The translations under genes and the position numbers were made by a program. This document shows positions 5,030 through 30,706 of a DNA stretch of 34,273 nucleotides, piece after piece; the first letter of the stretch is position 1, and the number at the start of each line of letters is the position of its first letter. The stretch lies in IMG/VR virus record IMGVR_UViG_3300013137_000008. One strand, 5' to 3'. The notes below the pieces were generated by a model. The model saw only the letters and a list, made by a program, of their open reading frames with translations. It was not told the DNA's origin and ran no database searches. The DNA is from a virus (Duplodnaviria; Heunggongvirae; Uroviricota; Caudoviricetes).

Positions 5030-5299
5030 CTATTCCGTTCTCTTCATTTTAGATAACCAATATATACCTACGAATAAGATGCCTAATAGGAGTATAACTA
5101 ATATAACAATGAACAATGGGGATAAAAAAACAGCTTCCCAATTTACATAGCCATATTTTTCCCAATATAGAATTATTGCACTTATTGTGGCTAATAATAC
5201 GAACGCTCCACCCAATATTGAACCAACAGGGGATGGGCTATTATCGTACATAGATATATTGTTATCTGGATCATATCCACATTTAGGGCATTTATTCAT
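5030..5299 (-). CDS. Small two-TM protein with N-terminal CxxC
   Basis: Start corrected to ATG 5299 (ATGA overlap, GGAG RBS). MNKCPKCG followed by two hydrophobic segments. Confidence 0.7.
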   Translation of the reverse strand: MNKCPKCGYDPDNNISMYDNSPSPVGSILGGAFVLLATISAIILYWEKYGYVNWEAVFLSPLFIVILVILLLGILFVGIYWLSKMKRTE

Positions 5300-6324
5300 T
5301 TGCTTTCTCCTATATCTTTTTGCGCTACTATCCAAAGGTGTGAACTCAGGTTATTGTCGGCTAAAAACTTCTGGAACTTATCGCCTGTGTTTAAGAGGGA
5401 TTGTAGGAATGGATCAGGGGTATATTCACCGTCTTTAATTTTGTTTTTTACTATGTCTACGTCTAATTTGCCAGGGGTCATAACCTCAAGGACTTTGAAT
5501 TTGCAATTCTTTAAGAGTAGTGATAGGGATTCTATGTTGAATAGTTGTAAGTGCTCAGGATTGATCTGGTCTGATTTCTCTCCTAAAAGGGCTATGTCAA
5601 ATCCATGGCAGTTGGGGGTCGTGAGGATTAACAGGCCGTGGTCATTGAGTATATCGTGGCACTTGTTTAAGAAATCTTTGGGACTGAACAGGTGCTCGAT
5701 TAACTCAAAGGCTGTGATGCAGTCGATGCCTTTTATGTCTAACTTCTCTATGGGTTGATGATAGGTCTTTATACCTCTCTTTGAACATTCCTTGTGAAGT
5801 ATTGATGGCTCTACGGCATAAATCTCATCTATAATTCCGAGTTTCTTTACTTCCTCGCAGAATGTTCCATATCCTGCTCCAACGTCCAGCAGATTATATT
5901 TCTTCTTGTACAGTGTACTCCAATCGCTAACTAACCCCGACACCATCTCTGCTCGTGGCCTGAATATCTGCTCACGTCTTATCTTTTCTGTCTTAGGAAA
6001 TATGTACTTTGACCAGTATTTGTAATGCTCTGAATTGGCGTAGTATTGATCTAATATCTTACGTGATGGCCTTTTTAAGATGTAGATTGTGCCACAACGA
6101 TGGCATTCTATAAACATGAACTTATATTTCACGAACGCATTGTTGTCTTTGAGAAAATATTTTGTCCCGCTTGTGTATAAATCTACTCTTTTACTTATAC
6201 CACAGGCAGGGCAAACGACTGCTTCAAATTCATCTACGTGTTCTAGTAGCCTATCTATGTCTTCCTTGAAGGCTTCTTCTTGACCTGTCTTGAGGTCTTT
6301 TGGTCTGATACCGTACTCTTTCAT
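5296..6324 (-). CDS. Class I SAM-dependent methyltransferase with N-terminal Zn-binding CxxC pairs (glycan-locus type)
   Basis: CPAC...CHRC, LLDVGAGYG motif I, FELIEHL, LLILTTPN. Confidence 0.85.
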   Translation of the reverse strand: MKEYGIRPKDLKTGQEEAFKEDIDRLLEHVDEFEAVVCPACGISKRVDLYTSGTKYFLKDNNAFVKYKFMFIECHRCGTIYILKRPSRKILDQYYANSEHYKYWSKYIFPKTEKIRREQIFRPRAEMVSGLVSDWSTLYKKKYNLLDVGAGYGTFCEEVKKLGIIDEIYAVEPSILHKECSKRGIKTYHQPIEKLDIKGIDCITAFELIEHLFSPKDFLNKCHDILNDHGLLILTTPNCHGFDIALLGEKSDQINPEHLQLFNIESLSLLLKNCKFKVLEVMTPGKLDVDIVKNKIKDGEYTPDPFLQSLLNTGDKFQKFLADNNLSSHLWIVAQKDIGESK

Positions 6325-6333
6325 ATATGTTTC

Positions 6334-6735
6334 CTAATATGCCAGCAGCATCGCAGTTGCAGCAGAACCTATAAATCCGCCTATAAATGCTACTGTCAAT
6401 ACAATAAACATTAAGGTGCTCCAGCCACGCATTGGGGTTTTAGTCAACCAGTCATAGCCTAGGTTTTGGTCTGTAGTATTGTAGAAACCTACCTTTACTA
6501 CATATGTACCGCATATTGGAGTAACAGTTACGCCTTCATCTGTAATAATATAATCACCAAATTTTTCCTGCAAATTAGATACTATGGGGCAAGAATCATC
6601 CACTATGGTTGAGCCTTTATAAAGATATGAGTGTACTGTGTCGCCAACCTCACTACCTTTCATCAATAATACCAACCCAGCAATACATATAATGGTACAA
6701 GCTATTATTATTGCCCACTTGATTCCTTCGCTCAT
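6334..6735 (-). CDS. Membrane protein with N- and C-terminal TMs around a loop domain
   Basis: Hydrophobic termini; TAATG coupling; NTT sequon in the loop. Confidence 0.7.
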   Translation of the reverse strand: MSEGIKWAIIIACTIICIAGLVLLMKGSEVGDTVHSYLYKGSTIVDDSCPIVSNLQEKFGDYIITDEGVTVTPICGTYVVKVGFYNTTDQNLGYDWLTKTPMRGWSTLMFIVLTVAFIGGFIGSAATAMLLAY

Positions 6736-7919
6736 TATCCTACTCCTACTTTAACTTTTCCATATTCACAAGATTCTCCCCAAATATTATCCTTCACCCA
6801 GTATCCGTTTTCAACTCTCCATACTCTTGGATCTCTAAATGTATCACAAATACAGTCAAATTCTTCTTCACTCATGTTTACGTATTTGAGCCAACGTTCT
6901 AAGTCCCTACGTGGTTTAACGCTATCATACTTGTGTACCATCTCAATTCCTTGTTCACGTGTCATATAACCACCACGTATGTCTTTGCAGGCGTGGTCTG
7001 ATGCTCGTCCATATCCTAATTTGATAAATTTGAGATAGTCGTGGATACCGTTTTCGTGCATATCATCAAGGTTTGAGAACATCCTGTAGGTTCTTTCAAA
7101 TGGTTGCCTTGCCCGTTGCCATCCGTATTGTTCTTCGACTATTTTAATCTGTTTATTGGCATCCCAGTTCAGATAGTTGCTCAAATGAAGCCCTCTTACT
7201 CCTACTTCGTCAATCTCTTTGTCTGAGGGATATTGTGCCCACAAAAGGTCATGTTCTTTTAATCCTTCTTTCAGTTCAGGATGCCCAAGTTTTTCAAGCC
7301 CTTCATCAACAAAGTCATACCAGTCATATCCTCTCAGGGCATGTTCAAGCCTATGTTTGGCTGTGAATTCCACGAAGTCATTATAGGAATACATCCCGCC
7401 TAATTCCATGAATCCATGTTCTCCCCACAACATAAGAGGAACCTTGTATCTGACCGCTACTTGGATTGGGGTTGTGTAAATCCCACAATGGGAGTGCCAG
7501 TTGTTATCTCCCTGCAACTTGAACCCTATCCTGTTCATCTTGATTAGGGTCTGCTCACCTGGACGTACTATGATGTGATCGCAGTCAAACACTTTACGCA
7601 TGTTCTGGAGATTTTCTTCGCCCTCTGGTAAGTAATTGTTGCCATGATATGTGACTAAAAGCGGTTTCAGTTTCAATAACTTTGTGACTACATGGGTCTG
7701 GAAATAGCTGTCTTTGCCGCCACCTACGGGCACTAAAATATCGTAGTTGCTCGTAGAGCGATATTGGTTTGTGAGTTTGACTAACTTCTGCCAGCGTTCA
7801 TCCCAGTTTATCTTCTTTTTTTGCTCGGACACTCTACAACCTGAACATACTCCATTTTCATCGAATGTAAGCGGAGTGGCTGCGATTGACGGATATACGC
7901 ATTTTGTGCAGTATTTCAT
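6735..7919 (-). CDS. N-acetyl sugar amidotransferase (WbuX/PseA/AglX family)
   Basis: Start corrected to ATG 7919 (ATGA overlap). MKYCTKCVYP...GVCSGC N-terminus, PP-loop VPVGGGKDS, YLKFIKLGYGRA, IRGGYMTREQG. Confidence 0.9.
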   Translation of the reverse strand: MKYCTKCVYPSIAATPLTFDENGVCSGCRVSEQKKKINWDERWQKLVKLTNQYRSTSNYDILVPVGGGKDSYFQTHVVTKLLKLKPLLVTYHGNNYLPEGEENLQNMRKVFDCDHIIVRPGEQTLIKMNRIGFKLQGDNNWHSHCGIYTTPIQVAVRYKVPLMLWGEHGFMELGGMYSYNDFVEFTAKHRLEHALRGYDWYDFVDEGLEKLGHPELKEGLKEHDLLWAQYPSDKEIDEVGVRGLHLSNYLNWDANKQIKIVEEQYGWQRARQPFERTYRMFSNLDDMHENGIHDYLKFIKLGYGRASDHACKDIRGGYMTREQGIEMVHKYDSVKPRRDLERWLKYVNMSEEEFDCICDTFRDPRVWRVENGYWVKDNIWGESCEYGKVKVGVG

Positions 7920-8692
7920 AGTCTTACTGGCAATCCTGCCATCTTCATGGCTCTCTTTCCACCTTTGTCTGCCATCTCTTTGAAATGCCATATATTAGCT
8001 GCGGCAACCGCTGAAGCTCCTGCTTCTATGCCTTGGGCGTAATCATCATAGTTTCCTACTCCACTACAAGCTATGACCGGAATAGACAATGATGAGCTTA
8101 TTTTGTTTATCAATTCCAAGTCGTATCCCTCTCCCATACCATCACGCTCTATGCTTTGCAATAGTATCTCTCCTGCCCCTCTCTGCTCTACTTCTTTTGC
8201 CCACTCCACTGGATTTAACCCTGTTGGGGTTTGCCCACCATCTATCATAACTTCATTTTGAAATACATCTATGCTTACTACTATTGCCTGACGCCCAAAA
8301 ATTTTAGAGCTTTCTGTGATTAGCTCAGGATTGCGAAATGCTTCGCTGTTCAAAGTTATCTTGTCCGCTCCTCTCTTAAACCGTTCTCTCATATCTTCTA
8401 CCGTCTTAATTCGCCCACCCCAGGTTAATGGTATGAAACAAGTTTTTGCTGCGGCTTCCAATATCTCAAGTGGCTCATTCAAGCCTTTGGTTTTATGGTC
8501 ATTGCGCCTGAGGTCATACTGACCATCTCTTGTTATATCAAGATAGATTATCTCATCTACACTCCATTCATTGAACCTTTGCACTTCATATATTGGATTA
8601 CCGATTACTTGGTGTATCTTGAACTGCTCACTGCGCACAAGTAATCCATTCTGAAGAAGTAAAACTGGAATTAGACGTTTTAAAAGTGGCAT
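7916..8692 (-). CDS. HisF-like cyclase, WbuZ/AglZ glycan-modification type
   Basis: KRLIPVLL (canonical HisF has RIIPCLD), DEIIYLDI, PLTWGGRI, GAGEILLQSIERDGMGEGYDL, IPVIACSG. Confidence 0.88.
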   Translation of the reverse strand: MPLLKRLIPVLLLQNGLLVRSEQFKIHQVIGNPIYEVQRFNEWSVDEIIYLDITRDGQYDLRRNDHKTKGLNEPLEILEAAAKTCFIPLTWGGRIKTVEDMRERFKRGADKITLNSEAFRNPELITESSKIFGRQAIVVSIDVFQNEVMIDGGQTPTGLNPVEWAKEVEQRGAGEILLQSIERDGMGEGYDLELINKISSSLSIPVIACSGVGNYDDYAQGIEAGASAVAAANIWHFKEMADKGGKRAMKMAGLPVRL

Positions 8693-8693
8693 C

Positions 8694-8762
8694 CTACACT
8701 CCGTCTTTGAAGTAGATTCCTGGGCGAGTGTCAGGCTGAACGCATAATTTACAGTATTTCAT
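8694..8762 (-). pseudogene. 22 aa N-terminal relic of a second N-acetyl sugar amidotransferase
   Basis: MKYCKLCVQPDTRPGIYFKDGV* matches the family N-terminus (compare MKYCTKCVYP...FDENGVC at 7919). ATGA-coupled to the upstream gene; stops 2 nt before the HisF-like ATG. Confidence 0.75.
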
Positions 8763-8974
8763 TCACTATCCTCGTAAATCCACAATTTTGCTGTAATATA
8801 TATTACAACCATTGCCAAAGTAATTGGAATGATTGTCCCCCAGATTCCTATAGTTGGAAATATGAATTCCAATAGTACAGCGGTCAACCCTGTAAGCGTT
8901 AATAGCCCCAATGCCATTGCTGATATCAGGGTAAGAAGCAACATGTGTTTTTTCCCCTGCCTAATAATCTTCAT
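8759..8974 (-). CDS. Small two-TM protein
   Basis: 71 aa with two hydrophobic segments. Confidence 0.7.
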   Translation of the reverse strand: MKIIRQGKKHMLLLTLISAMALGLLTLTGLTAVLLEFIFPTIGIWGTIIPITLAMVVIYITAKLWIYEDSE

Positions 8975-8975
8975 G

Positions 8976-9083
8976 CTATCTCCCTATCAATGCAAATATA
9001 ATGAACAATACCAATGCCCCTGCAACTATGAGCAGTATCTCTACTCCAGAGGACGCTACAAACTTATCTAAGATATCACCCAT
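8976..9083 (-). CDS. 35 aa single-TM protein (not in the ORF track)
   Basis: MGDILDKFVASSGVEILLIVAGALVLFIIFALIGR* exactly fills the gap between its neighbours. Confidence 0.65.
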   Translation of the reverse strand: MGDILDKFVASSGVEILLIVAGALVLFIIFALIGR

Positions 9084-9500
9084 CTATTTATTAGTCATCC
9101 TTGATTGTTTATGCTCATCTACTATCATTTTTATTAAAGAGGCTATGAGCAATATAGGAAATGAGCCTATCAATATACAAACAATAGCCCACTCAACTGT
9201 TGGCATGAGCGCTATAAACGATGTTAGTAGTACGCTCAAGAAAAGAAGCGAGATGCCAATTAACCACCCCCATAGATTATCTTCACCGGTAAGTTCTTTA
9301 GCCTTGTGTTTTTTGACTAACTTGCTAATGACAATTAAATCAACTAGCAAGAGGATAGCAGATAGACCAAGCATGATTCTTCCTGCCATTAAATCATTGG
9401 TTGATACATTGAAATTTGCACGTTCCCATATATAGGGAATAAACACTATCGCCAATGCCACTACAGTTGCTGCCATCAATAACCCAAATATCCATCTCAT
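9084..9500 (-). CDS. Four-TM membrane protein
   Basis: 138 aa with four hydrophobic segments; ATGA coupling. Confidence 0.75.
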   Translation of the reverse strand: MRWIFGLLMAATVVALAIVFIPYIWERANFNVSTNDLMAGRIMLGLSAILLLVDLIVISKLVKKHKAKELTGEDNLWGWLIGISLLFLSVLLTSFIALMPTVEWAIVCILIGSFPILLIASLIKMIVDEHKQSRMTNK

Positions 9501-10159
9501 TTTATTTCTCCTTTCTCAAATACCCACCAAGTCATATCGTCAAATACTGTCCCATAAGGATGAGGCTGAGTTCTATCACTGTAGTCTTGCTGCCACAGAA
9601 ATCCATAGCTCACGCACTTGAGGGTAGGATAATTGTCCAAATACCATTTGCCAAAATCCCTCTTAAAAATAAGATTCTCTTTGCCCCTGTAGCTTACCTC
9701 GCATGGTTCATGGGAGAAGTATTCGGTACAGATAACATACTTGCGGGCTACCCGTACTATTTCATCTGTCATACGCTTTAGATTCTCTGGGGATACGTGA
9801 ATTAATACACCATGGGTCATTACTACGTCTATTTTGGAATCTTTGTACGGTAACTGAAATCCATCACAATTAGTAGCCTTTTTTAGTTTGAAAAACGGTT
9901 GACTTGTTAAAATCGAGTACGCTTCTGCGAATGGCTCTACTGCATGTAGTATCTTTTTTCCTTTGAACAATTCGTTGATATACCAGAGATTGAGGCCGAT
10001 ATTTGAGCCTACTTCAAGTAGTGATCGAAATCTCGCGTTCTTGAGTATCTTCTTGAACGCCTTTACCCCCAACGGTAGTTTATAGTCTGCAAAGTTATTG
10101 CGTTCTATGTATTCATGCCCATACTCAGGGCTTGTCCAATGGTTTAACTGCTCGTTCAT
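9497..10159 (-). CDS. Pseudaminic acid biosynthesis-associated methylase-like protein
   Basis: W..PEYGHEYIERN N-terminus, LLEVGSNIGLNL, GVLIHVSP, LIFKRDFG and DDMTWWVFEK are characteristic of this family. Confidence 0.85.
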   Translation of the reverse strand: MNEQLNHWTSPEYGHEYIERNNFADYKLPLGVKAFKKILKNARFRSLLEVGSNIGLNLWYINELFKGKKILHAVEPFAEAYSILTSQPFFKLKKATNCDGFQLPYKDSKIDVVMTHGVLIHVSPENLKRMTDEIVRVARKYVICTEYFSHEPCEVSYRGKENLIFKRDFGKWYLDNYPTLKCVSYGFLWQQDYSDRTQPHPYGTVFDDMTWWVFEKGEIK

Positions 10160-10560
10160 TTATTCTCCTTTGCTAATACAATAACCCCTGCTAGCATTAG
10201 GATGATCCCTATTAAGCCACCAATATAATAAGCCAATGTTCCATCAGAATATCCCCAGATCAAATTATTCCAATAGCTTCGTTCATAGTGTCGAACTAGA
10301 ATAGGTTGTAGTTCTGGTATTTGTTCTTTAGAATAAAAATCATACGACAGTAAAAATTTATTGTCTCTTATATCAACAATATCTCCAATAGATGTATAGT
10401 CTATGTTGAATTTATCGAGTACTATCTCACCTTTATAATAGTTGTCATGCTGCCCTAGATAAGCTACCATTGTAATAAAAGTAGAGAGAACACATGTAAT
10501 GCCACTGACCCATAGCATTGCCCATATTTTGAGGTCTCCATTCTTCTCTATTATATTCAT
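10156..10560 (-). CDS. Membrane protein with two TMs and a loop domain
   Basis: Hydrophobic N- and C-terminal segments; ATGA coupling. Confidence 0.7.
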   Translation of the reverse strand: MNIIEKNGDLKIWAMLWVSGITCVLSTFITMVAYLGQHDNYYKGEIVLDKFNIDYTSIGDIVDIRDNKFLLSYDFYSKEQIPELQPILVRHYERSYWNNLIWGYSDGTLAYYIGGLIGIILMLAGVIVLAKENK

Positions 10561-10613
10561 TTCCTTTTACCTCTATACTCTCCTTATCTCCCACTACTCC
10601 AAATTTTATGAGT

Positions 10614-11033
10614 TTATCCCTTGCATATTACTAATACAAGTAAGCCAGTGAATCCTGACCACACGGCAAGAGCTATCCACCATCCCGCAAACATATTTTG
10701 ATAACCCTCTATATCAGGATGTAGATTCTCCCTAGGATAAAGTAAGAATTCATTATGTGCCACACTTATTCTCCAAGAAACAGTTGGGGGAGAAGTTTTT
10801 ACCAGTTCACATATAAGGGTAGCATCATGAGCAGTAGAAATGTCAGCAAGCATATTTTCATAATTAAGGGCTTCACTCATAGTAGCGAATTGTCTCTGTC
10901 CTTCATATACAAGCGAAAATGAAGATATAAGAGGGAAACCTATCCCAATAAAGACAGCACATGCCAAAATGATTACCAGTAATGATAAACCAATTTTACT
11001 TTTAATATCTAAACCCGTCTGCTGCTTGTTCAT
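10614..11033 (-). CDS. Membrane protein with two TMs and a loop domain
   Basis: Hydrophobic N- and C-terminal segments; GGAGAG RBS. Confidence 0.7.
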   Translation of the reverse strand: MNKQQTGLDIKSKIGLSLLVIILACAVFIGIGFPLISSFSLVYEGQRQFATMSEALNYENMLADISTAHDATLICELVKTSPPTVSWRISVAHNEFLLYPRENLHPDIEGYQNMFAGWWIALAVWSGFTGLLVLVICKG

Positions 11034-11053
11034 TTACTCTCCTATCTTCTCCA

Positions 11054-11425
11054 CTATTTATACTGGTTAAGGAAGTCTACTGCCCCTTGCACTGTATCGA
11101 ATTCCTGAGTGCTTCTCCATGTACCAGCATTTATTGTTATATCTATCTGTATTTTTTTCGTATCTGCACTTTGTTTGGTATCAAGCCTTTGTAGTAATTC
11201 TCTGTTCAACTCCATAAGCTCATCTAATTCATATCTAAGAGCAATAGATGATTGGGATATAGAGAACACTTTCCCTGATATATCTTCTTGGTTATCCAAT
11301 ATTCTGTTCATATTACTATCTATCCTTGTGACTGTAGATTGTACGCTCTTTTCATCATCAGCAAGACAACCGAATAGACAGCCTACCAATATAATTGATG
11401 CCAACATTAAAACTATTTTCTTCAT
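11054..11425 (-). CDS. Putative lipoprotein with coiled-coil
   Basis: MKKIVLMLASIILVGCLFGC signal peptide and lipobox-like end; heptad-like LRYELDELMELNRELLQRL; GGAGG RBS. Confidence 0.7.
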   Translation of the reverse strand: MKKIVLMLASIILVGCLFGCLADDEKSVQSTVTRIDSNMNRILDNQEDISGKVFSISQSSIALRYELDELMELNRELLQRLDTKQSADTKKIQIDITINAGTWRSTQEFDTVQGAVDFLNQYK

Positions 11426-11445: not shown

Positions 11446-11483
11446 TTTTGTTCTATTATATCATACTTTGCCAGCAATTACAA
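11446..11483 (-). promoter_or_regulatory. Internal sigma70-type promoter (copy B of a shared 25-bp motif)
   Basis: TTGTAA (11483-11478), 17 bp, TG, TATAAT (11460-11455). CAAAGTATGATATAATAGAACAAAA matches 21269-21293 at 23/25. Confidence 0.7.
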
Positions 11484-12534
11484 TCTCGTCACTGAGTTCA
11501 GCCAAGTCCAGACGCGCCTGTATCTGTGGAATATACTGCCCTAATTGAGTGAGTATCTCAGGATTGACTAACGATAATTGAGTAACAAGTTCATAAGCGT
11601 CCATTCCGAAAAACCAGCAGGCCTCTATCTGATAGCCATTATATGCAAATGCTGTAGTGATTGATGAATCCGTGAAACACTGGATATGTCCAAGTGGGTC
11701 AAGGTGGCGAACGATTGAGTTAGGAAAGATTGTCTGTATCTCTGTTGACAGACAATTCCAGCGTGGGACTTCGGCTACTACAAGGTTCTTAGATGATACT
11801 GATTCTTTGGCTAATTTTAGAAACTCTGTGGGATTGGTAACGTGTTCAAGCACTCCCCAAAAGGTTATCACGTCATAGCGTTGGAATTGAGCGTAATCTT
11901 CAAGGAAATCTGCTTCTATTAACTCTACTTGCAGGTTTTCACTGGCAAATTTACGTCCACTTGCGCTTGGTTCTATGCCATTGGCTAATATTCCTGCATC
12001 CCTACAAACCTTAACGAAATGTCCGCTGCCTGCCCCTACATCAAGTATGGTCTTGGGTTTACGATCATAAATGCGCTCGTATTGATTTATTGCCCAGTCT
12101 AATTTGGGTCGAGCTACTTGATCTAACCTTGTTTGAGTTGTCCTTGTATCTGCATAAGTTGATTGATATTCTTTGTTGTTCTGATAGAATGATTTGAGTG
12201 TCTCTGCCCTTGGAATATAGTGAACGAAATAATGTGAGCACTTCTGACATTGTACGTACTTTGCCCCATAGACTTCGAGTTTATCTTTAAACTCTTTTCC
12301 GTTGCAAATTGGACAGTTGATAACTTCTTTCAAGTTACCTTTGTAAAGCTCTATCCTCGATTTCGATATAGAATCTACTTTAGCTTTGAAATCCTCTACC
12401 ATGTTCGCTTTGAGGCTGAGAATGTCGATAGGCTTTCCATGGGTGGTGTGGACATAATGTTTTTTGTTGTTGTATGTCCATACCTGGGGACTATTGGTTA
12501 GGGGTTCTATTGGAATTTCTTTAAACCACATCAA
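11461..12534 (-). CDS. Class I SAM-dependent methyltransferase with N-terminal CxxC pairs
   Basis: CPIC...CQKC, ILDVGAGSG, FWGVLEHVTNP, VVAEVP; same architecture as 5296..6324. Confidence 0.85.
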   Translation of the reverse strand: MMWFKEIPIEPLTNSPQVWTYNNKKHYVHTTHGKPIDILSLKANMVEDFKAKVDSISKSRIELYKGNLKEVINCPICNGKEFKDKLEVYGAKYVQCQKCSHYFVHYIPRAETLKSFYQNNKEYQSTYADTRTTQTRLDQVARPKLDWAINQYERIYDRKPKTILDVGAGSGHFVKVCRDAGILANGIEPSASGRKFASENLQVELIEADFLEDYAQFQRYDVITFWGVLEHVTNPTEFLKLAKESVSSKNLVVAEVPRWNCLSTEIQTIFPNSIVRHLDPLGHIQCFTDSSITTAFAYNGYQIEACWFFGMDAYELVTQLSLVNPEILTQLGQYIPQIQARLDLAELSDEIVIAGKV

Positions 12535-12747: not shown

Positions 12748-13422
12748 TTAGTTCCACTCCCTAATACGCCACTCAATTGTTTTCATTATCACGTCAAACC
12801 CATGTTTGAATGGATTTAAGTGGGAATCCTGCTCTAAGTTATGATAGGTACAGGATATGGGGACTTCGGTTATCTTAAATCCCTGTTTACGTGCCTTGAC
12901 AAGTATCTCTATGGTTGAGCCGAATCCATTTTCTTCTAATTTGACTGAGTTGACAAACCTTTTTGAAAATGCTCTAAATCCACTTTGAGCGTCTGTTATA
13001 GGTTCGTGACCAAAATTGTAAGTCTCTGTTATCAACCATACTCCAAAACGTCTGTACTTAGGTATCTTTAAGCCATTGTGTTTATAGAAGCGTGAGCCTA
13101 TAACTACATCGTATCCCTGTTCTATTTTGTTGATTAAATGGGGGATTTCGTCTGGGTTGTGCTGCAAATCAGCGTCTATGGTTACTACGTAATCAAACTC
13201 TTTGGCTATGGCTAATCCTGTCCTTATAGTCGCCCCATAACCATAATTTTTAGGATGACAGTAGACTTCTGCTCCACAATAACGTGATATGAGTGCCGTA
13301 GTATCTCTTGACCCATCATCTACCACTATTACGGTGGGAGTGTATTTTAGACAGTCTTTAATTATCCCACCAATGGTATAGGCTTCATTGTGTGCAGGAA
13401 TGACTACGGCGAGAGTTTTCAT
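12748..13422 (-). CDS. GT2 glycosyltransferase, polyprenol-phosphate sugar synthase (DPM1-like)
   Basis: VVIPAHNE, VVDDGSRD, NYGYGA, IDADLQHNP, DVVIGSRF and DAQSGFRAF motifs. Confidence 0.9.
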   Translation of the reverse strand: MKTLAVVIPAHNEAYTIGGIIKDCLKYTPTVIVVDDGSRDTTALISRYCGAEVYCHPKNYGYGATIRTGLAIAKEFDYVVTIDADLQHNPDEIPHLINKIEQGYDVVIGSRFYKHNGLKIPKYRRFGVWLITETYNFGHEPITDAQSGFRAFSKRFVNSVKLEENGFGSTIEILVKARKQGFKITEVPISCTYHNLEQDSHLNPFKHGFDVIMKTIEWRIREWN

Positions 13423-13604
13423 TTGGATACTTTACCCTCAATAGTAAATGGTTTCAAAAAATCATTCACAGTCTTATCAGATGGTTTCTTTGATTCCATG
13501 TAGACCATTTGGGTTAGAATATTCATAAGGACATCCCTCACAACCTGTTCTGTCATACCGTTTGGGCCTTTCTTTTGGAAAGCCCGTTTTAACCATCTTA
13601 ACAT
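13419..13604 (-). CDS. Hypothetical protein
   Basis: Likely ATG 13604 with GGAG RBS, overlapping the NeuB-like stop; ATGA-coupled to the GT2. Confidence 0.55.
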   Translation of the reverse strand: MLRWLKRAFQKKGPNGMTEQVVRDVLMNILTQMVYMESKKPSDKTVNDFLKPFTIEGKVSK

Positions 13605-14644
13605 GATAGTTTCTCCCATTCTATAGGTTCCCCTGCTTTTATATCTACAGTAGTCCTAAGTCCTATGACTGAATTGAGATATTTTGGTTCTATGCCAGTG
13701 GCTGGTCGGAGTGTATCTATAACGTCCTCTGTTATTATAGCATTGCATGGAATAAATGTCTTTGCGAATAAACTCCGCCTCTGAAGTATGACTGTCTCTC
13801 TCTCAATATCATACAACTGTTTGATATGTGACCCCATGGCCTTTTCCATTTTGCGTATGCCCTCTACTAAAAGCGTCATGTCTTCTCTATCCATGGCAAA
13901 TGGATGATCGGGGCCAATCAACGATTTATCAAGCGTAAAGTGTTTTTCGATTACACACGCTCCATTGGCTACTGCCCCAAGTGATGCGATATATCCCTCT
14001 GAATGGTCTGAAAAACCGACTAAACATCCAAAGGCTTTACGTAGGATATTCATAGCCCTTACATTTGTGTGTTCAAGTGGTGTGGGATATTGAGTTGTGC
14101 ATTGAAGCAAAACTAAATCTCGATTTCCCTGCGAATGAATGACAGATACTGCTTCTGCTATTTCTCCCATATTTGAAGCCCCAGTTCCTAAGATTATAGG
14201 TTTCTTTTTTGAGGCTACGTACTCTAAGAACTTGAGGTTGGTTATCTCACCGCTTCCAATCTTAAATGCAGGAACATTTAATTCGTCAAGCAGGTCTACA
14301 GCTTCTATATCATAGGGGCTGGACATGAAATCTATGTCTATCGCTTCACAATATTGAATCAGGCTTTCGTGCCCTTTGCGTGGCAAACTCGCATCTCTAT
14401 AGGTATCATAGACTGTCTTATTCCATTTGGTTTGGAATGAGCATCTCTGCTGAAAGGCATGGCGATTGATTATCTTATCGGGTATGAATGATTGGAATTT
14501 GGCACAATCACACCCACATTCTTTAGCAGCGTCTATTAGTTCACATGCTTTTTTTAGACTTCCATCAAAGTTTGAACCTATTTCCGCTATGATGTAGGTG
14601 CGGTATTCGTCTCCTATGATTCGATTGCCAAGTTTTAGATTCAT
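13598..14644 (-). CDS. neuB: Nonulosonic acid synthase (NeuB/PseI family) with C-terminal SAF domain
   Basis: YIIAEIGSN, AKFQ, AFKIGSGE, LLQCTTQYP, GFSDHS, VIEKHFTLD, GPDH, RRSLFA and RPATGI. Confidence 0.93.
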   Translation of the reverse strand: MNLKLGNRIIGDEYRTYIIAEIGSNFDGSLKKACELIDAAKECGCDCAKFQSFIPDKIINRHAFQQRCSFQTKWNKTVYDTYRDASLPRKGHESLIQYCEAIDIDFMSSPYDIEAVDLLDELNVPAFKIGSGEITNLKFLEYVASKKKPIILGTGASNMGEIAEAVSVIHSQGNRDLVLLQCTTQYPTPLEHTNVRAMNILRKAFGCLVGFSDHSEGYIASLGAVANGACVIEKHFTLDKSLIGPDHPFAMDREDMTLLVEGIRKMEKAMGSHIKQLYDIERETVILQRRSLFAKTFIPCNAIITEDVIDTLRPATGIEPKYLNSVIGLRTTVDIKAGEPIEWEKLSC

Positions 14645-15780: not shown

Positions 15781-15805
15781 ATTGCTTCTCCCTTCAGTAG
15801 TCGCT

Positions 15806-16225: not shown

Positions 16226-16237
16226 ATCATTTCTCCT

Positions 16238-17459: not shown

Positions 17460-17471
17460 ATTGTTCTCCTT

Positions 17472-18389: not shown

Positions 18390-18390
18390 C

Positions 18391-21268: not shown

Positions 21269-21307
21269 TTTTGTTTTATTATATCACACTTTGTTAGGTA
21301 AAGTCAA
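21269..21307 (-). promoter_or_regulatory. Internal sigma70-type promoter heading the glycan/membrane block (copy A of the 25-bp motif)
   Basis: TTGACT (21307-21302), 18 bp, TG, TATAAT (21283-21278); AGGT RBS-like site before ATG 21251. Confidence 0.75.
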
Positions 21308-24322: not shown

Positions 24323-25012
24323 TTAGATTAACCTCTGGCTCTTGCCTGTTAATTCTATAACATTCTCTTTACACATATCCAATACTCTATCTACGGCATA
24401 TGAACCAAGATAGTTCTTTAATTCTTTTGGCGAATGGTTGGCAGTAAATGCCATAAATCCCTTATTAGAGTAGATTGAGTCAAGTAAGAGATTAAGTATA
24501 TTAGTGGCAAATTCTTCCTTGGTGGTATTGCCATGCCCAAGGTCATCAATCATGACTGCCCCGTTTCTAGCAAACTTAACAAATTCTTGAATATGTTGCT
24601 GAACCGTATCCTCATATCTGCCTGTGTAACAACCATGGAATTCATAAATAAGTTCCTTGGAGTCTACAATACTGGCGGGACAAGATGTGTTATTGCGTAA
24701 ATCTAATTTGTCTATCATATTATTGGCAATAGCATAAAGTAGATATGTTTTCCCTATTCCTAAGTTACCGTAGATATATAAACCTGTACTATCTGCGTGA
24801 TTCTTATTGAATACAACTTGCTCAAATTTATCTATCGTTACTAATTGAGCCTTAGTTAATGATGTGACATTCTGTAAGTTGGCATTCTGATATCTCAGGG
24901 GGAAATCTCTACGCCATGGTGTCTTGTATCTATCATTACAGTAATCACAAAATACTCCACCGTCACATTTTGAGCAATGCACTACTGTTCCTGCTGTATT
25001 TTTATTAAGCAT
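24323..25012 (-). CDS. dnaC: DnaC/IstB-like helicase loader ATPase
   Basis: GLYIYGNLGIGKT Walker A, VMIDDLG Walker B, FTAN and DRV; directly downstream of the initiator. Confidence 0.85.
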   Translation of the reverse strand: MLNKNTAGTVVHCSKCDGGVFCDYCNDRYKTPWRRDFPLRYQNANLQNVTSLTKAQLVTIDKFEQVVFNKNHADSTGLYIYGNLGIGKTYLLYAIANNMIDKLDLRNNTSCPASIVDSKELIYEFHGCYTGRYEDTVQQHIQEFVKFARNGAVMIDDLGHGNTTKEEFATNILNLLLDSIYSNKGFMAFTANHSPKELKNYLGSYAVDRVLDMCKENVIELTGKSQRLI

Positions 25013-25922
25013 TATCTTGCCTCTCTTTGATTTTGCTCATATGTTTATCCACTTGGTCATCGTAGTCGTCTGGTACTCCAGGCTCAAAACGTTTCCTTGG
25101 CATTACTACGACGTTTTTATCCTTTTCATCTTTTCTATCCCAATTAAGTATTGTGGCATAATCTGAAGCATATTTTTTGCCCTTGGATTGCTTATAAAGT
25201 GATAGATTTTCAATTTTATCCTTTGTTTTAGTTTCTCCAAATCGTTCTATTAGCTTATTGTATTCATCCTGTGTTAGTAAAACAAAGGGAGAGAATTCCT
25301 TCTTTTTGTTATTTCTGTTGATTTCTGCGGATTTCTGCGGATTTTCTCCGATTTCTGTTTTTATCCTCTCCTCTACTCTACTATAGTCTACGTTATTATC
25401 TTTAGTAGAAGAGTTACTACCCCTGTCTTTTGTGGGTGATTTCTGCGGATTTTCTCCGATTTCTGCGGATTTTCTCCGATTTCCAACACAGTTATCGTTA
25501 GTTAAACTATTTTCTCCGATTTCTGTGGATTTCTGTGGATTTAAAACAATTTCTGCGGTGGGTTTGGAAGGAATATCTGTTGAGCGATGTTTATAAACTA
25601 TAGAAATGCCCTCTATAAAGTTATCTGACCAAATAATCTTGTCTTCCCAAAGATTTTTATCAATTGCGTCTAGTTTTGCTAATGTGTCTAAGATTTCAGA
25701 ACATTTATCGCTAGCAATCTTAGTTTTTGCTTGAAGGAATTCCCATGTTGCTGGTTTATTGCAATCTATGTAATGCCCATTAGATACCCCCAACATCTCT
25801 AATAACTTAAACCAGAAGGCATATCCATCGTTGCCATATTTCTCTTCAATAATGAACATGGTCATTTTGTGTAAGCAATAGTGAGGGAAAAAGTCTACTG
25901 TCTGCTTTGCCTTACGAGCCAT
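25005..25922 (-). CDS. Phage replication initiator (DUF4373/Lin1244-like N-terminus)
   Basis: MARKAKQTVDFFPH...KYGNDGYAFWFKLLE; C-terminal KYASDYATILNW motif; internal repeats. Confidence 0.85.
   Translation of the reverse strand: MARKAKQTVDFFPHYCLHKMTMFIIEEKYGNDGYAFWFKLLEMLGVSNGHYIDCNKPATWEFLQAKTKIASDKCSEILDTLAKLDAIDKNLWEDKIIWSDNFIEGISIVYKHRSTDIPSKPTAEIVLNPQKSTEIGENSLTNDNCVGNRRKSAEIGENPQKSPTKDRGSNSSTKDNNVDYSRVEERIKTEIGENPQKSAEINRNNKKKEFSPFVLLTQDEYNKLIERFGETKTKDKIENLSLYKQSKGKKYASDYATILNWDRKDEKDKNVVVMPRKRFEPGVPDDYDDQVDKHMSKIKERQDNA
25320..25557. repeat. Iteron-like 10-bp repeats inside the initiator gene (putative origin)
   Basis: About a dozen GATTTCTGYG / GATTTTCTCC units in three 10-bp-phased clusters (25320-25357, 25438-25484, 25508-25557). 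Confidence 0.85.
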
Positions 25923-26139: not shown

Positions 26140-26174
26140 ACGTTCGCCTCCAAATTTGTATTTAGGCTATTTAT

Positions 26175-26203
26175 AATATACCACCATTGGTATAGGTTGT
26201 CAA
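26175..26203 (-). promoter_or_regulatory. Sigma70 promoter with overlapping palindromic operator
   Basis: TTGACA (26203-26198), 17 bp, TG, TATATT (26180-26175); TATACCA-4-TGGTATA inverted repeat at 26177-26194. Confidence 0.8.
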
Positions 26204-26233
26204 TAGGTTTACGATAGATATTTAGTCTTTTGA

Positions 26234-27592
26234 TTAAAACTGCCTGAAAACCCTATCAAGTGCTGTCGCCATGCGCTCGCCGTCCTCGTTAGTCAGGGCA
26301 TCCTCAGCAAGGGCTATGTCACCTTTTGTCCATACTGTGTTAGAGTAAATGGACTCCACAAATTGCTGGGATAGTTCCCTTGTTGCTCGTGGTTGGCGGG
26401 TCTTGTAAACGTGGAATATTGTTTTGGGTAAGTCATTCCACGAACGGATTAGATATACAAGGTGGTCATGGCAGTAGAAGTCGTGGCCTAATGAGATAAC
26501 GGGTTTATCAAAAATCAAGGCTTCAAACCCAGTAGTTGAGTTTAAGGTTATTACTCCTATGGATTTTTTTAAAAGCGATACTGGTGAACACAATGGGTTG
26601 ATAATACGGACGTTGGGAAGTTGCGCTAAGTGGTATAAATCGTGAAAACGTACATCTATCCCGTTGAAGTATGGGTGGGGTTTGATATAGAGTTTTACGC
26701 CTACTGGCAGGCATCTTGAGATACTCTGGGCTAACTCTACCTGGTTGGTGAATGGCTCCATGATTGTTATATTGGAGTCCTCTTCAAAATGAAACGGGTA
26801 AAAGAAATATTCCTCATCTTTCGGCTCCTGCCAGAAGATTCTATTGGAAATACCGCGGATGGTTGACCAAAATAACCTGTCAATTTCGCTTTCTAAGGGC
26901 TGTAGCGCAATTTTTTCATGGGGGCTAATGGTTTCCATTGTCTTTTGTGTTTTAAAGTACTGTAGGGCTTTGGAGGCGTTGTTTTGCAGGTTTTGTGTTG
27001 ACCAGTAGGACTTTAGCCCTGTTCCTTTGACATATTTCTGGTCGGGATAAAGAGATAGGATTTCGTCCCAATTTGCTCTATCTCCGTTCCAGCGGTGGAT
27101 TTGGGAGTAATCGTCCTTGCCGAACATAAAACCTCGCTTGGGGAAGCGTGAGTTCATCAGGTTTACCACGGGGATTTTTAATTGTCTGGCTACGTAATAG
27201 GCCATCAAGTTCCACGGGTTGGATTCAAACGCTATTGTTAGGCAGTCGATTTTGTAGTCTGTGTAAAATTTGAAATACCAGTCGGCTAAAAAGGTCATGT
27301 ACTGGTTTGTTCGTTCTATGTTTTTGTAGTCTTTGCAGTCGTTCTTACTGAATTGCCTCCAGTCTAACGAGCTTATGTATTTGAACGAAAACGGCAGTTG
27401 CCTCTCTATTTCCCGTTGCTCACCTATTGTGTAAATTTTATATCGCTCATTATACATACTGATTATGTTTGGTTGTTTAGTCCTGCCGACTATAAAGACT
27501 TTATGCCCCATCCTTTCAAGGGGGTTTGTCCACGCTAATTTTATGTTAAGGTCGTGGTCACGGCTACCTGTTAGGATTGTGGCTATGTTCAA
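26234..27592 (-). CDS. KpsS/Capsule_synth-like glycosyltransferase
   Basis: YFFYPFHFEED, LYIKPHP and VITLNSTTGFEALIFDKPVISLGHDFY are typical of KpsS/KpsC-like capsule synthesis proteins. Confidence 0.75.
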   Translation of the reverse strand: MNIATILTGSRDHDLNIKLAWTNPLERMGHKVFIVGRTKQPNIISMYNERYKIYTIGEQREIERQLPFSFKYISSLDWRQFSKNDCKDYKNIERTNQYMTFLADWYFKFYTDYKIDCLTIAFESNPWNLMAYYVARQLKIPVVNLMNSRFPKRGFMFGKDDYSQIHRWNGDRANWDEILSLYPDQKYVKGTGLKSYWSTQNLQNNASKALQYFKTQKTMETISPHEKIALQPLESEIDRLFWSTIRGISNRIFWQEPKDEEYFFYPFHFEEDSNITIMEPFTNQVELAQSISRCLPVGVKLYIKPHPYFNGIDVRFHDLYHLAQLPNVRIINPLCSPVSLLKKSIGVITLNSTTGFEALIFDKPVISLGHDFYCHDHLVYLIRSWNDLPKTIFHVYKTRQPRATRELSQQFVESIYSNTVWTKGDIALAEDALTNEDGERMATALDRVFRQF

Positions 27593-27593
27593 A

Positions 27594-27851
27594 TACCCAA
27601 CTCCATAACTTCCTTAGAATATTATTTAGATACTATCTAATTTGCGTCTACATGCCCTACATGTAACCATCCTCTTGTCACGTGTCGCATCCATCATCCT
27701 AACTTCTTTGTCACATAATGAATAGACAATAACTTTCCATCTCGCCGTTCGCCATTCTTTGTTGCCTACCCTAAAATGAATTGCCATATACCTTCCTCCA
27801 TTTGCATAAAGATGACGAGGGTTTTCTTCATATATCCAACTCCATAACTTC
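27594..27851. repeat. Direct repeat of the methylase 3' end (ATA[T/C]CCAACTCCATAACTTC)
   Basis: 16/16 identical core at 27597-27612 and 27836-27851, 239 bp apart. A related CAAGAAGTTATGGAGTT lies on the plus strand at 3365-3381. Confidence 0.8.
27626..27787 (-). CDS. 53 aa Cys-containing mini-protein
   Basis: ATG 27787 with GGAGG RBS; SLC...VTCRAC. Confidence 0.55.
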   Translation of the reverse strand: MAIHFRVGNKEWRTARWKVIVYSLCDKEVRMMDATRDKRMVTCRACRRKLDSI

Positions 27852-28484
27852 TTGTGCCAATCTCTTGACAGCGATTTCGCAATACTTTTCTTCAATATCA
27901 ATGCCAACACATCGGCGGCCAAGCTTCTTAGCGCATACCGCCGTTGTACCACTGCCAAGAAATGGGTCGAGTATCGTTCCTTCCTTAAATAAAGACATCA
28001 AATAAGCCCACAAACTAATAGGTTTAGGGCAAGGATGTTTTTTCTCTTCCCCCTTAGCGAAATTCAAAGTATTAAAATATAAATAATCCTGCGGGAGCCG
28101 TTTGAATGGTTTGCCATATACAAGAATTGGTTCCCAAGCATTATATCCCCCCATCCTGTTGAAAGATACCGCAGCAGGTTTATGCCAACACAATACCCAC
28201 TTAGCTTTTGGGTAATTCCATATATTGCTAATGCCCGATGTAAATACAATATTGCTTGTTACCCCTTGTGCAAACTTAAACCAATCCCTACAAAAACGTT
28301 TATATTCTGAGTCTGTTAATGATGGCATCCCCTTATCGTATTCTCGCTTATTAGGCCCAATATTCTTGGCATTATAATCTGGATCAGTCAACACTATATC
28401 CACAGGCTCAAGTTGTGGCAATATCTCACGACAATCACCGTGATAGATTATTATCCCCTTATCTTGATAATAAGGGTTCATCAA
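27828..28484 (-). CDS. N4/N6 DNA methyltransferase (beta class, phage orphan type)
   Basis: YHGDCREILP; motif IV LTDPDY (variant of DPPY); HPCPKP; motif I ILDPFLGSGTT. Confidence 0.9.
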   Translation of the reverse strand: MMNPYYQDKGIIIYHGDCREILPQLEPVDIVLTDPDYNAKNIGPNKREYDKGMPSLTDSEYKRFCRDWFKFAQGVTSNIVFTSGISNIWNYPKAKWVLCWHKPAAVSFNRMGGYNAWEPILVYGKPFKRLPQDYLYFNTLNFAKGEEKKHPCPKPISLWAYLMSLFKEGTILDPFLGSGTTAVCAKKLGRRCVGIDIEEKYCEIAVKRLAQEVMELDI

Positions 28485-30706
28485 AATCCCCCCGTGTACT
28501 CAAAAAGTTTAACCTCGTAGGTCTGTTTAACGGTCTGCGACATCATAGATAAATCCACTCCACCAAACCCCTTGATTGGTTTTATTTCCTTGACTTCCTC
28601 TAAATCTACACATGGTAAAAATGGGTCTACGCCACCAAATGAGTATTGAGTATCGTCTGTGAGAGGATGTTCTTTCATGTATTTTTGGGCTTCATCAAAG
28701 GATGGGGTGTCTATGATCTTTTGAATCCACTTTTGCCCGTCTATGTCTTTGTAGATGAGTATGGGGCAACCTGGGGATTTGACTGCCTGACCATCAAAGT
28801 TGAATAGTCTGACCACCATGGAGCGATAGTAGTCAGGGTGGAAGATGGTCATCCGCTCGATTTTGTCTTTATTTCCGTAGTAAAAGACTGATATGAACCC
28901 AGGTGACTCCCAACTCCATAAATCCCGTAAATCTTTACTCGCTCTTTCGGCATAAGTAGGCATGGCGGTAAATTTACCAGTTGCTGTTTGATAGTCGATT
29001 ACTATGTAGCGGGACTTGGCCTGTTTGAGTACAGTGACTGCCTTTTCGTTATCTGTAGTTGTTAAAAATACTGCTGGCACGTCACGATTCGTTGAGCCTG
29101 GGTTACAGGTGGGGACTCGATGGGCTACATAAGTAATCCAGTAACCATAGTCCCACCATGACATTACAGAGTAATTTGGTTCTTGGAGGTTGTCCTTATA
29201 ATTAGCGTAATAGTAGTTAGCATCATCAAATGGTTCAGGGGTATTAGAACGCATCCAGAGCATGGCCTGTTCCCATCCAGTGGTGATTGAGCCTTCCAAG
29301 GGATGTGAGAATTGATTGGAAATCATGAAGTTGGGCATGAGGATGAAGGTGAGTATGATAAGCACAAGTAGGATATCCCCCGCTTTGTCAAACCATTTCA
29401 TCTTCTTAAAGTTCTTTTTTAAGTAGTTAGTAGCGATTTCGAGTATCATGACTATTACCATACCTGACAGGATTGCTACGTAAATTGCCAAATAGTATGC
29501 AAACCGTATCATGGCAAGTGTGGAAATTACCATGGTCAACGTTCCTAATATGATGAAAACATAGTTAAAAAGTGTGTGTCTATCAGCGTTTACTATCTTC
29601 TTGATTACTACGCCTATCCCTATTAGGCACATGAATATTGAAGCTGTAAAGTTGCCCCACAACGCCTGTAAACTGAATTCGTTGCCAAATATCAGGATAG
29701 GCCTTTCCTCTGAGGTGTGGGAAATGGCGTTCCATTCTACGATTGACATGACTATACCGTTCACGTATCTGAAGTAGTTTTTGGCGAACATATACAAAAT
29801 AATAAGCGTAACCGCCGCCACTACGATTGAAATGATGAGCAATGCCCACCTATTTCTGTGTAAAAAGAATATCTGTATCAATGTAGTAATAAGCGCAACT
29901 GCAAGGAATAACCCCGATACTAACAATACGTTATTATCCACTGCCCCGTTCAGTAGCTGTGCAATGATAATGTAGAACAGTATAGTTGAGGCAATCATCA
30001 CAAGTGGTATTTGAAGTATTGCTCCGCTGGGAGCCTCACGTTTAAGGGAAAGAATAATCAAATACAGAACATAAGAGACTATGAATATCAAGTAAAGATA
30101 AATTGCTCCTGACCATGACCTCAAATAGACCGCCATTAATACCCCAGCAAGGATAGAAAAAATATAATTTACCCACCCTTTATTGTGGTATCTGACCGCC
30201 ATTATTACACACATAACTACAAATACACATAAGAACGCTTCAAAGCAATGGTAGTCAATATTACCTGCTATGGTACGTGCCATCAATTCTCCGCCCATAG
30301 TGGCAATTAAAAGCGCACCAAATAACCCTGCCCATGCGTTGAATAATAGCGTCCCAATAATGAACACTCCAATCACACACAATACAGCCAAAAGTGGCGG
30401 AATGTAGTAACACGCCAATTCCGTTCCGTTTTGGGGAATTAGCTGTGCTACACCTGAAATAATGGTAGGCCACAGTGTAATATCGGAGAGTGGCGGATTT
30501 CCTGTGGACATGAAATATGGGTCTTTATCCGGTAGGTTTACTCCATGTGAATTTATAAGTTCTATAAAACGTGCCTGGTAATAGGCGTCAACAGTTGGTA
30601 AACGTAACGTTTCGCCATGTAACCACGGGTCGGGTAGTATTACTCTGTAATAGAGGGCAAGGAAACAGATTGCTATGAGGGCAAGGATGATGAGGGCTTT
30701 CTTCAT
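28481..30706 (-). CDS. aglB: Oligosaccharyltransferase, AglB/STT3 family (archaeal-like)
   Basis: DAYYQAR, RTIAGNIDYH..E (DHH-like), HTSEE (TIXE-like), SWWDYGYWI and DYQTATGKFTAM (DK-like); about 13 hydrophobic segments. Confidence 0.93.
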   Translation of the reverse strand: MKKALIILALIAICFLALYYRVILPDPWLHGETLRLPTVDAYYQARFIELINSHGVNLPDKDPYFMSTGNPPLSDITLWPTIISGVAQLIPQNGTELACYYIPPLLAVLCVIGVFIIGTLLFNAWAGLFGALLIATMGGELMARTIAGNIDYHCFEAFLCVFVVMCVIMAVRYHNKGWVNYIFSILAGVLMAVYLRSWSGAIYLYLIFIVSYVLYLIILSLKREAPSGAILQIPLVMIASTILFYIIIAQLLNGAVDNNVLLVSGLFLAVALITTLIQIFFLHRNRWALLIISIVVAAVTLIILYMFAKNYFRYVNGIVMSIVEWNAISHTSEERPILIFGNEFSLQALWGNFTASIFMCLIGIGVVIKKIVNADRHTLFNYVFIILGTLTMVISTLAMIRFAYYLAIYVAILSGMVIVMILEIATNYLKKNFKKMKWFDKAGDILLVLIILTFILMPNFMISNQFSHPLEGSITTGWEQAMLWMRSNTPEPFDDANYYYANYKDNLQEPNYSVMSWWDYGYWITYVAHRVPTCNPGSTNRDVPAVFLTTTDNEKAVTVLKQAKSRYIVIDYQTATGKFTAMPTYAERASKDLRDLWSWESPGFISVFYYGNKDKIERMTIFHPDYYRSMVVRLFNFDGQAVKSPGCPILIYKDIDGQKWIQKIIDTPSFDEAQKYMKEHPLTDDTQYSFGGVDPFLPCVDLEEVKEIKPIKGFGGVDLSMMSQTVKQTYEVKLFEYTGGF

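Follow-up and report, generated by a model that had tools for sequence, protein, structure and literature searches.

An apparently functional archaeal-type oligosaccharyltransferase encoded together with sugar genes on a mobile, phage-like element from lake water

Oligosaccharyltransferases (OSTs) of the AglB, PglB and STT3 type use lipid-linked donors, and the structures of Archaeoglobus fulgidus AglB (AfAglB), PglB and STT3 place the active site on the outside of the membrane. In the pathways that supply such donors, AglJ of Haloferax volcanii primes dolichyl phosphate (Dol-P) and the AglXYZ and WbuXYZ proteins make acetamidino sugars, while KpsS and KpsC use cytidine monophosphate (CMP)-activated Kdo on lipid acceptors. 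Archaeal-type AglB is also used by bacteria of the Chloroflexota/Dehalococcoidia type. Viruses are thought to borrow the OST of their host. Seroconversion by phage gtrABC genes alters the host surface and blocks superinfection; to our knowledge, surface conversion by phages has been described for O-antigens and teichoic acids but not for protein N-glycans, and we know of no STT3/AglB OST encoded by chloroviruses. The DNA analysed here is a stretch of 34,273 nucleotides (34.3 kb; the window) from the virus record IMGVR_UViG_3300013137_000008, which encodes an AglB/STT3-type OST and a set of sugar enzymes. The explanation that we favour overall, at a probability of roughly 0.55, is that the window belongs to a freshwater-lake virus-like lineage with its own core AglB and donor-sugar genes, which would glycosylate exported proteins. 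A sequence-only reading of the same DNA had proposed a near self-contained N-glycosylation system of a bacterial virus.

The element's OST shares the fold, the catalytic and sequon-binding motifs and a similar length with archaeal AglB (A. fulgidus AglB-L, PDB 3WAJ, 5GMY and 7E9S) and with the OSTs of the NCBIfam model TIGR04154, and it is homologous over its full length to the AglBs of Dehalococcoidia at 27-30% identity. In contrast to the cellular AglBs, it belongs to a separate, long-branched clade so far found only on phage-like contigs, and its gene sits in a replication module instead of a cellular envelope locus. Like the Agl pathway of H. volcanii and the AglXYZ system of Methanococcus maripaludis, the element has an AglJ-like family 2 glycosyltransferase (GT2), WbuX/AglX-like and AglZ/HisF-like proteins and an AglB. 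Unlike those pathways, it has no AglY/HisH-like glutaminase, AglR-like flippase or further Agl glycosyltransferases, carries a KpsS-like enzyme and a NeuB-type synthase instead, and is a mobile element with a probable bacterial host. The gtrABC systems of Shigella and Salmonella phages follow the same logic, in that the sugar which a phage GT2 loads on polyprenyl phosphate is used by a GT-C enzyme on the outer side of the membrane. However, the GT-C enzyme of the element is a protein-asparagine OST and not GtrC, the GtrA flippase family had no match in the window, a whole nucleotide-sugar module is present, and the target is presumably protein rather than O-antigen. Viral genes for sugar nucleotides or glycosyltransferases, in part with a link to N-glycans, are likewise found in chloroviruses and giant viruses and in the case of a viral UDP-sulfoquinovose synthase, an auxiliary metabolic gene whose link to N-glycosylation makes it the nearest report (PMC7785012), but these are soluble glycosyltransferases or a single donor-pathway gene, unlike the OST of the element. 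No published report of a virus- or phage-encoded AglB/STT3 was found in the literature and no AglB homolog was found in 50,697 phage records (tblastn), in agreement with the earlier statement that no phage-encoded OST with its donor pathway was known.

The OST gene is located at 28481-30706 on the minus strand and encodes a protein of 741 amino acids (aa) with about 12-13 transmembrane (TM) helices, 12 of them clear by hydropathy, and a C-terminal globular domain. It was matched by the Pfam families AglB_core-like (E value 1.2e-21) and STT3 (9.1e-12), and TIGR04154 (oligosaccharyl transferase, archaeosortase A system-associated) covered its full length (1.5e-110, 371 bits). AfAglB-L (PDB 3WAJ) aligned with residues 9-589 (9e-31). 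D40 aligned with AfAglB D47 of the first acidic motif in external loop 1, D151 and H153 corresponded to D161 and H163 of the second DxD/DxH motif, and E333 within an H-T-S-E sequence aligned with the glutamate of TIAE (AfAglB E360), the TIXE/SVSE motif of external loop 5. A WWDYG motif aligned to that of AfAglB was found at W517-G521, and D571, K578 and M582 aligned with the DK region (DK/MI), which binds the Ser/Thr at sequon position +2. D40, D151, H153, T331, E333, E334, the WWDYG motif, D571, K578 and M582 were all invariant across 18 relatives. An AlphaFold (AF2) model built on the alignment of these relatives had a mean predicted local distance difference test (pLDDT) score of 76, with external loop 5 around E333 as a low-confidence region, and its best Foldseek match was AfAglB (7E9S; E value 2e-19, TM-score 0.66), followed by eukaryotic STT3 and PglB. 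The AglB gene is real, intact and under strong purifying selection, with a ratio of nonsynonymous to synonymous substitutions (dN/dS) of about 0.06, at near-saturated dS, against an ortholog of 76% identity. Judging from motifs and model, its product is apparently a functional archaeal-type OST. Profiles, alignment, structural model and the invariance among relatives therefore bear out the intact-motif OST that had been read from the sequence.

About 22 proteins with 43-87% identity to the element AglB formed a discrete group, and the next matches fell to 30% or less. In a tree with 69 cellular AglBs, 18 element sequences made up one clade with 100% support and a stem length of 0.83. This clade was sister to the TIGR04154 group (Dehalococcoidia, other bacteria and Methanocellales) and did not lie inside it, so the OST is not nested among host orthologs; the closest cellular AglBs were those of Dehalococcoidales, with 27-29% identity over the full length. 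The relative with the 76% identical AglB was analysed over its complete 80,856-bp contig (NCBI GCA_043956535.1, JBINNZ010004845.1; loci L002 and L004-L010). It is syntenic with the window and retains every sugar enzyme at 50-89% identity. AglB was located between a DNA polymerase and a replication initiator in all five contexts examined (43-100% identity), namely the window, the 76% relative (L002), L003, L174/L175 and the P0007 contig (ENA ERZ1426827). In the window, the polymerase is represented by the last open reading frame (ORF; 33380-34273, minus strand), the C-terminal half of a distant polymerase of 554 aa, which is 86% identical to the polymerase of the relative; all relatives likewise have a polymerase gene ahead of AglB. 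AglB is one of the core genes of the lineage, and in the favoured explanation it would belong to the early or replication region. Of the five contexts, the window, L002 and P0007 have a KpsS-like gene next to AglB. In P0007, a 680-aa DUF2206 membrane protein overlaps the AglB start and may be a second lipid-linked-sugar transferase.

The window is almost entirely minus-strand coding from about 3.8 kb to its right end, with a uniform GC content of 0.35-0.43. The KpsS-like glycosyltransferase, DPM-like GT2, PseB, NeuB/PseI, CMP-transferase, amidino enzymes and methyltransferases named in the sequence-only reading were recovered at family level, all on this strand. The KpsS/KpsC-like (Capsule_synth) glycosyltransferase at 26234-27592 (PF05159, 1.7e-14; KpsC PDB 6MGD, 5.5e-6; Atlas clusters LipB/KpsS, 0.98) has an ortholog of 65% identity next to AglB in relatives, and its probable role, by analogy, is to attach a CMP-activated ulosonic acid to a lipid-linked acceptor. 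The sugar module includes PseB, an inverting UDP-GlcNAc 4,6-dehydratase (19805-20773; TIGR03589, 449.6 bits, above the cut-off of 407.75), followed by an aldo/keto reductase (18391-19224) and a short-chain dehydrogenase/reductase (17472-18215), both assigned at family level. Next are a KdsB/NeuA/PseF-like cytidylyltransferase (16539-17249; CTP_transf_3, 1.2e-32; 26 bits with the PseF model) and an RmlD-like 4-keto-sugar reductase (14641-15495; PF04321, 1.3e-49; TIGR01214, 1.5e-52, below its cut-off). The NeuB-family nonulosonate synthase with SAF domain (13598-14644; PF03102, 1.1e-90) scored below the cut-offs of both the NeuB model (355 bits, cut-off 400) and the PseI model (311 bits, cut-off 340), and only three of the 50,697 phage records matched it. 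It is followed by a soluble GT2 of the polyprenyl/dolichyl-phosphate type (12748-13422), matched by the AglJ, PpgS and haloarchaeal Dol-P-hexose transferase models at 1e-34 to 1e-26. The remaining enzymes are a methyltransferase with an N-terminal extension (Methyltransf_23; 11461-12534), a member of the Pse-associated methylase family (9497-10159; TIGR03587, 144 bits, above the cut-off of 112), a HisF-like WbuZ/AglZ acetamidino-modification protein (7916-8692; 245 bits, below the cut-off of 300, 4.5e-73), a WbuX N-acetyl sugar amidotransferase (6735-7991; TIGR03573, 319 bits, above the cut-off of 203) and a second Methyltransf_23 protein (5296-6324). Their shared strand and co-conservation suggest a link between the sugar module and AglB.

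On the identities, intact motifs, fold, conservation and synteny of these genes, we propose an order of steps, a donor glycan, acceptors and a benefit. The AglJ/PpgS-like GT2 would load the first sugar on host polyprenyl phosphate at the inner membrane face, and the KpsS/KpsC-like enzyme would then add a CMP-activated ulosonic acid, for which the NeuB-type synthase and the cytidylyltransferase would be responsible. The 6-deoxy, acetamidino and methylated sugars would be provided or decorated by PseB, the RmlD-like reductase, WbuX/WbuZ and the three methyltransferases. The lipid-linked glycan would be turned outward by a flippase of the host, or by one that escaped recognition, and the element AglB would move it to the asparagine in N-x-S/T sequons of exported proteins. 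Since the active site of AglB faces the outside of the membrane, the acceptors must be exported proteins, and glycosylation of virions assembled in the cytoplasm is unlikely; of the virion and host-surface proteins previously suggested as acceptors, only exported or host-surface proteins are plausible. Glycosylation of host surface or S-layer proteins could lead to receptor masking or superinfection exclusion, like phage gtr seroconversion of O-antigen. Other candidate acceptors are the giant proteins of the element that have a signal peptide, a C-terminal membrane anchor and FN3 or DUF2341 domains. The 76% relative encodes a DUF2341 protein of 1506 aa, which starts with a signal peptide and ends in a multi-TM anchor, and a very large, exported FN3 protein of more than 781 aa.

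Several observations weigh against this proposal, and they are given here with the alternatives on which they bear. Glycosylation by the element AglB is a prediction from genes and a modelled fold, and the 371 bits obtained with TIGR04154 are below its curated cut-off of 450. The latter might be expected if the protein were a GT-C enzyme that, like ArnT or the O-antigen ligases, had been redirected to a polysaccharide, a lipid or another acceptor that is not a protein; the fold is common to GT-C enzymes, and ArnT and PMT were among the weaker Foldseek matches. However, the residues of the WWDYG and DK motifs, which bind the Ser/Thr of the sequon in OSTs of known structure, do not vary within the clade, and the 19 top structural matches were all AglB, STT3 or PglB, so that we consider such retargeting very improbable.

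The donor pathway has gaps. Compared with the PseBCHGIF and NeuB/NeuA pathways, the element has PseB, a NeuB-family synthase, a cytidylyltransferase and the Pse-associated methylase, and it has an RmlD-like reductase, but the DegT (PseC), GNAT (PseH) and PseG families were absent from the window ORFs of at least 80 aa. NeuC was not found among the window genes with family profiles, and neither a HisH-like WbuY/AglY nor a recognisable flippase was found in the window. The syntenic 76% relative has no recorded PseC, PseH or PseG either; the P0007 contig has a GNAT. To call the system near self-contained was thus an overstatement. The nonulosonate pathway that had been proposed is represented by PseB, the NeuB-type synthase and the cytidylyltransferase, whereas the name pseudaminic acid is unwarranted because the PseC-type aminotransferase, PseH and PseG are missing. 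As PseB and the RmlD-like reductase occur without an aminotransferase, known pathways point rather to a mono-amino 9-deoxy nonulosonate as the product, or to a 6-deoxy-L-HexNAc/HexNAm together with a separate CMP-ulosonate. An ORF with four TM helices at 9084-9500 was considered as a flippase and rejected, since it had no family match, is missing in the 76% relative and is deleted in co-occurring strains.

The AglB-KpsS pair and the sugar module are about 5.5 kb apart with the replication genes between them, and they are probably separate transcription units with separate promoters. Two near-consensus sigma-70-like promoters, each identified by consensus match only, were found on the minus strand, one at 26175-26203 (TTGACA-17-TGnTATATT) in the gap between the AglB-KpsS unit and the replication genes and the other at 21278-21307 upstream of the sugar module. 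Both are intergenic and have an extended -10 element. The sigma70 promoters claimed earlier are represented by these two sites, but sigma-70-like sites as a whole showed no excess in the window (45 versus 65 in shuffles). In the most divergent relative (L174), AglB has no KpsS neighbour; a 277-aa helix-turn-helix protein is encoded beside it and no sugar gene lies within 6 kb downstream. Furthermore, the 76% relative carries a TET-associated glycosyltransferase (TAGT; PF20691, 7.6e-45) between its NeuB and GT2 genes. Enzymes of this family glycosylate modified DNA bases. Phages are reported to hypermodify DNA with diverse glycans (bioRxiv 10.1101/2023.12.21.572611). Together, the split arrangement, the L174 context and the TAGT gene would be in line with functional separation of the OST and the sugar module, in which AglB uses host lipid-linked glycans and boosts or retargets host N-glycosylation, and the sugars feed hydroxymethylated DNA bases (TAGT-type), surface polysaccharide or lipid. 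Because the TAGT gene sits inside the sugar module of the relative, the products of the module may not all go to proteins. In contrast, no TAGT homolog was found in the window (best tblastn E value 0.2), neither the window nor the 80,856-bp relative showed a TET/JBP or hydroxymethylase gene, and the KpsS-like gene is the immediate neighbour of AglB in three contexts. The GT2 is of the polyprenyl-phosphate-charging type and enzymes like KpsS act on lipid acceptors, which fits a lipid-linked route and not DNA. We regard functional separation as unlikely but as a real rival. The TAGT gene (L007 9118-10035) and a gene for a DUF5131 radical-SAM-like protein (7081-7809) both lie inside the sugar module of the relative and are both absent from the window.

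The giant exported proteins had 1.06-1.28 sequons per 100 aa compared to 0.40 in other proteins, and those of the relative exceeded its other proteins 2.5-3 times. This density was not above that of composition-matched shuffles, and sequon enrichment was rejected as evidence for these proteins as acceptors. A different use of the OST is conceivable if the element is no tailed phage. It would then be a membrane-containing virus, or an element that forms vesicles, with wall-less, S-layer-clad Chloroflexota as hosts, and would use its OST to N-glycosylate giant FN3/lectin-like 'spike' proteins of its own, which have a C-terminal membrane anchor. This would fit because tailed-phage structural genes are absent from the window and the relative, because an unrelated complete virus in IMG/VR pairs an STT3-like gene with an anchored FN3 giant, and because membrane-containing viruses and plasmid vesicles of haloarchaea depend on N-glycosylation (PMC10384203). 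We hold it to be a distinctly long shot; if true, it would be a bacterial counterpart of the glycoprotein spikes on enveloped eukaryotic and archaeal pleomorphic viruses.

With regard to the carrier, gene content indicates that AglB and the glycan genes are located on a mobile, phage-like element and not on a cell chromosome. A lambda-like initiator and DnaC had been noted before, and both were confirmed with PHROGs as a replication initiator (Lin1244_N; phrog_2562; 25005-25922, minus strand; 5e-24) and a DnaC-like helicase loader (24323-25012, minus strand; 1.8e-22). The 76% relative carries DnaB, SSB, DnaJ, the distant DNA polymerase, Phage_rep_O, a DnaC-like loader and a phospholipase D (PLD) nuclease, as well as YopX, four TnpB genes and several HNH genes. 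At L008 4110-6875, beside the genes for giant exported proteins, 32 tRNA genes for most amino acids are tightly clustered. No housekeeping genes were found over the 80,856 bp of the relative, which does not agree with an ordinary cellular chromosome.

That the carrier is a phage is inferred. The search for terminase and capsid genes was extended along the flanking sequence by means of the 76% relative, and capsid, portal, terminase and tail families were absent from the window and from the whole relative. Thus the mobile, phage-like content of the proposed phage was confirmed but its structural hallmark genes were not. Only weak PHROG signals were obtained, for a terminase (7e-4) on a Cys-rich 361-aa protein and for a minor tail protein (2e-5), and both were rejected as too weak to count; the 356-aa P-loop protein of the window is unrelated to the Cys-rich protein. 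Scans of IMG/VR with AglB, an AglB alignment and a polymerase alignment detected no member of the lineage and only four contigs with distant STT3 genes. A scan of metagenome contigs with AglB returned only cellular-type AglBs with at most 30% identity. The 50,697 phage records gave no match to 25 kb by megablast or to the polymerase by tblastn, and DnaB matches to these records were generic (31-34%). The missing structural families, the absence of the lineage from the IMG/VR scans and the lack of similarity to phage records at the level of DNA, AglB and polymerase would all suit a carrier that is not a virus but a megaplasmid-like, other extrachromosomal or integrated host element, which would make the finding a mobile cellular glycosylation island rather than a function of a virus. 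However, the PHROG matches to phrog_874 (2.6e-67), a radical SAM family (phrog_9298, 1e-45), the replication initiator and the DnaC-like loader were strong. The HNH genes are free-standing and accompanied by YopX and the four TnpB genes, the element has the 32-tRNA array and its own DNA polymerase, and its small ORFs are dense with no housekeeping genes among them. In addition, the 98,273-bp contig to which the window belongs and the contig of the relative are probably both incomplete. We consider a non-viral carrier rather unlikely, though a serious contender, and the element probably to be a virus, whose structural genes may lie outside both contigs or whose virion may be of an unrecognised kind.

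The two contigs, which were assembled independently, end close to one and the same gene (window 703-1773), at a distance of no more than about 1.4 kb, as seen at window positions 1-1400 and at the start of L010. The first 400 bases of the relative match the C-terminal third of this gene, and the site could mark a genome terminus or a repeat.

In none of the four IMG/VR contigs with a distant STT3-like gene was the HK97 capsid family found. One of the four, IMGVR_UViG_3300025655_000107 (L001; 38,167 bp with terminal repeats, rated complete), is unrelated to the element and encodes a 597-aa STT3/AglB-like protein with WWDYG at 9580-11373. About 1.5 kb downstream, at 12929-19036, it encodes an FN3 protein of 2035 aa that has a signal peptide and, at its C-terminus, a multi-TM anchor. 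This architecture is that of the giant proteins of the element, with weak similarity of repeat motifs (E value 0.002).

The element DNA was obtained from lake-water metagenomes. The host is likely to be Chloroflexota (Dehalococcoidia-type) bacteria because the nearest cellular AglBs are from Dehalococcoidales, the replication genes are bacterial in type and lake water is the source of the DNA. PseB homologs were uninformative in this respect, with 63-68% identity to many proteins. If a virus-like lineage does carry its own glycosylating AglB, viruses whose bacterial hosts have an S-layer could remodel the glycan coat on the proteins of the cell, or glycosylate proteins that they export themselves, and a mobile AglB would explain in part why archaeal-type OSTs are scattered among bacteria. 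Such a lineage would also provide compact, divergent OST and glycan cassettes for glycoengineering and a handle on virus-host recognition in uncultured Chloroflexota.

The direct neighbours of AglB in the window are variable. The gene at 30703-31515 (minus strand), coupled to the AglB start by an ATGA overlap (30706-30703), had been called ASCH-like, a label that we dropped because no Pfam family or PDB match supported it; the protein matches phrog_874, of unknown function (2.6e-67). On the other side, an N6/N4 DNA methyltransferase gene (27828-28484, minus strand) overlaps the AglB stop. The ATGA overlaps described on both sides of AglB therefore hold upstream, while the downstream junction is TGATG, or TTGA with a TTG start. 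The methyltransferase gene is absent in relatives and is not part of the glycosylation system; in the 76% relative, other small ORFs and no methylase gene flank AglB.

Clean joins across 15495-16542, 9066-9510, 8757-8976, 4273-5347, 17238-17470, 17589-18141 and 18209-18559 were seen in contigs of the same lake run and of others, indicating co-occurring strains without the small membrane-protein ORFs between the sugar enzymes. The skipped ORFs include three between the RmlD-like gene and the cytidylyltransferase gene and the ORF with four TM helices at 9084-9500. Those missing from the strains also have no homolog in the 76% relative, and the small membrane-protein ORFs are variable inserted cassettes and not pathway components. 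At 3770-5034 there are four copies of a repeat of about 28-51 nt with the core CCCATAAATGRCTGG (4 matches versus 0.12 expected), which bound small membrane-protein genes in a cassette-array-like arrangement. This repeat did not recur elsewhere in the window, including between the sugar genes. The genes at 3816-4223 in the cassette array and at 15806-16225 in the sugar module encode small proteins that are paralogs of each other, both with a pair of N-terminal TM helices and a common C-terminal motif, and the latter protein has a homolog of 35% identity in the relative. Variant contigs of two runs skip the radical SAM gene at 2498-3391 (phrog_9298, 1e-45), with joints from 2503 to 3357 and from 2501 to 3353.

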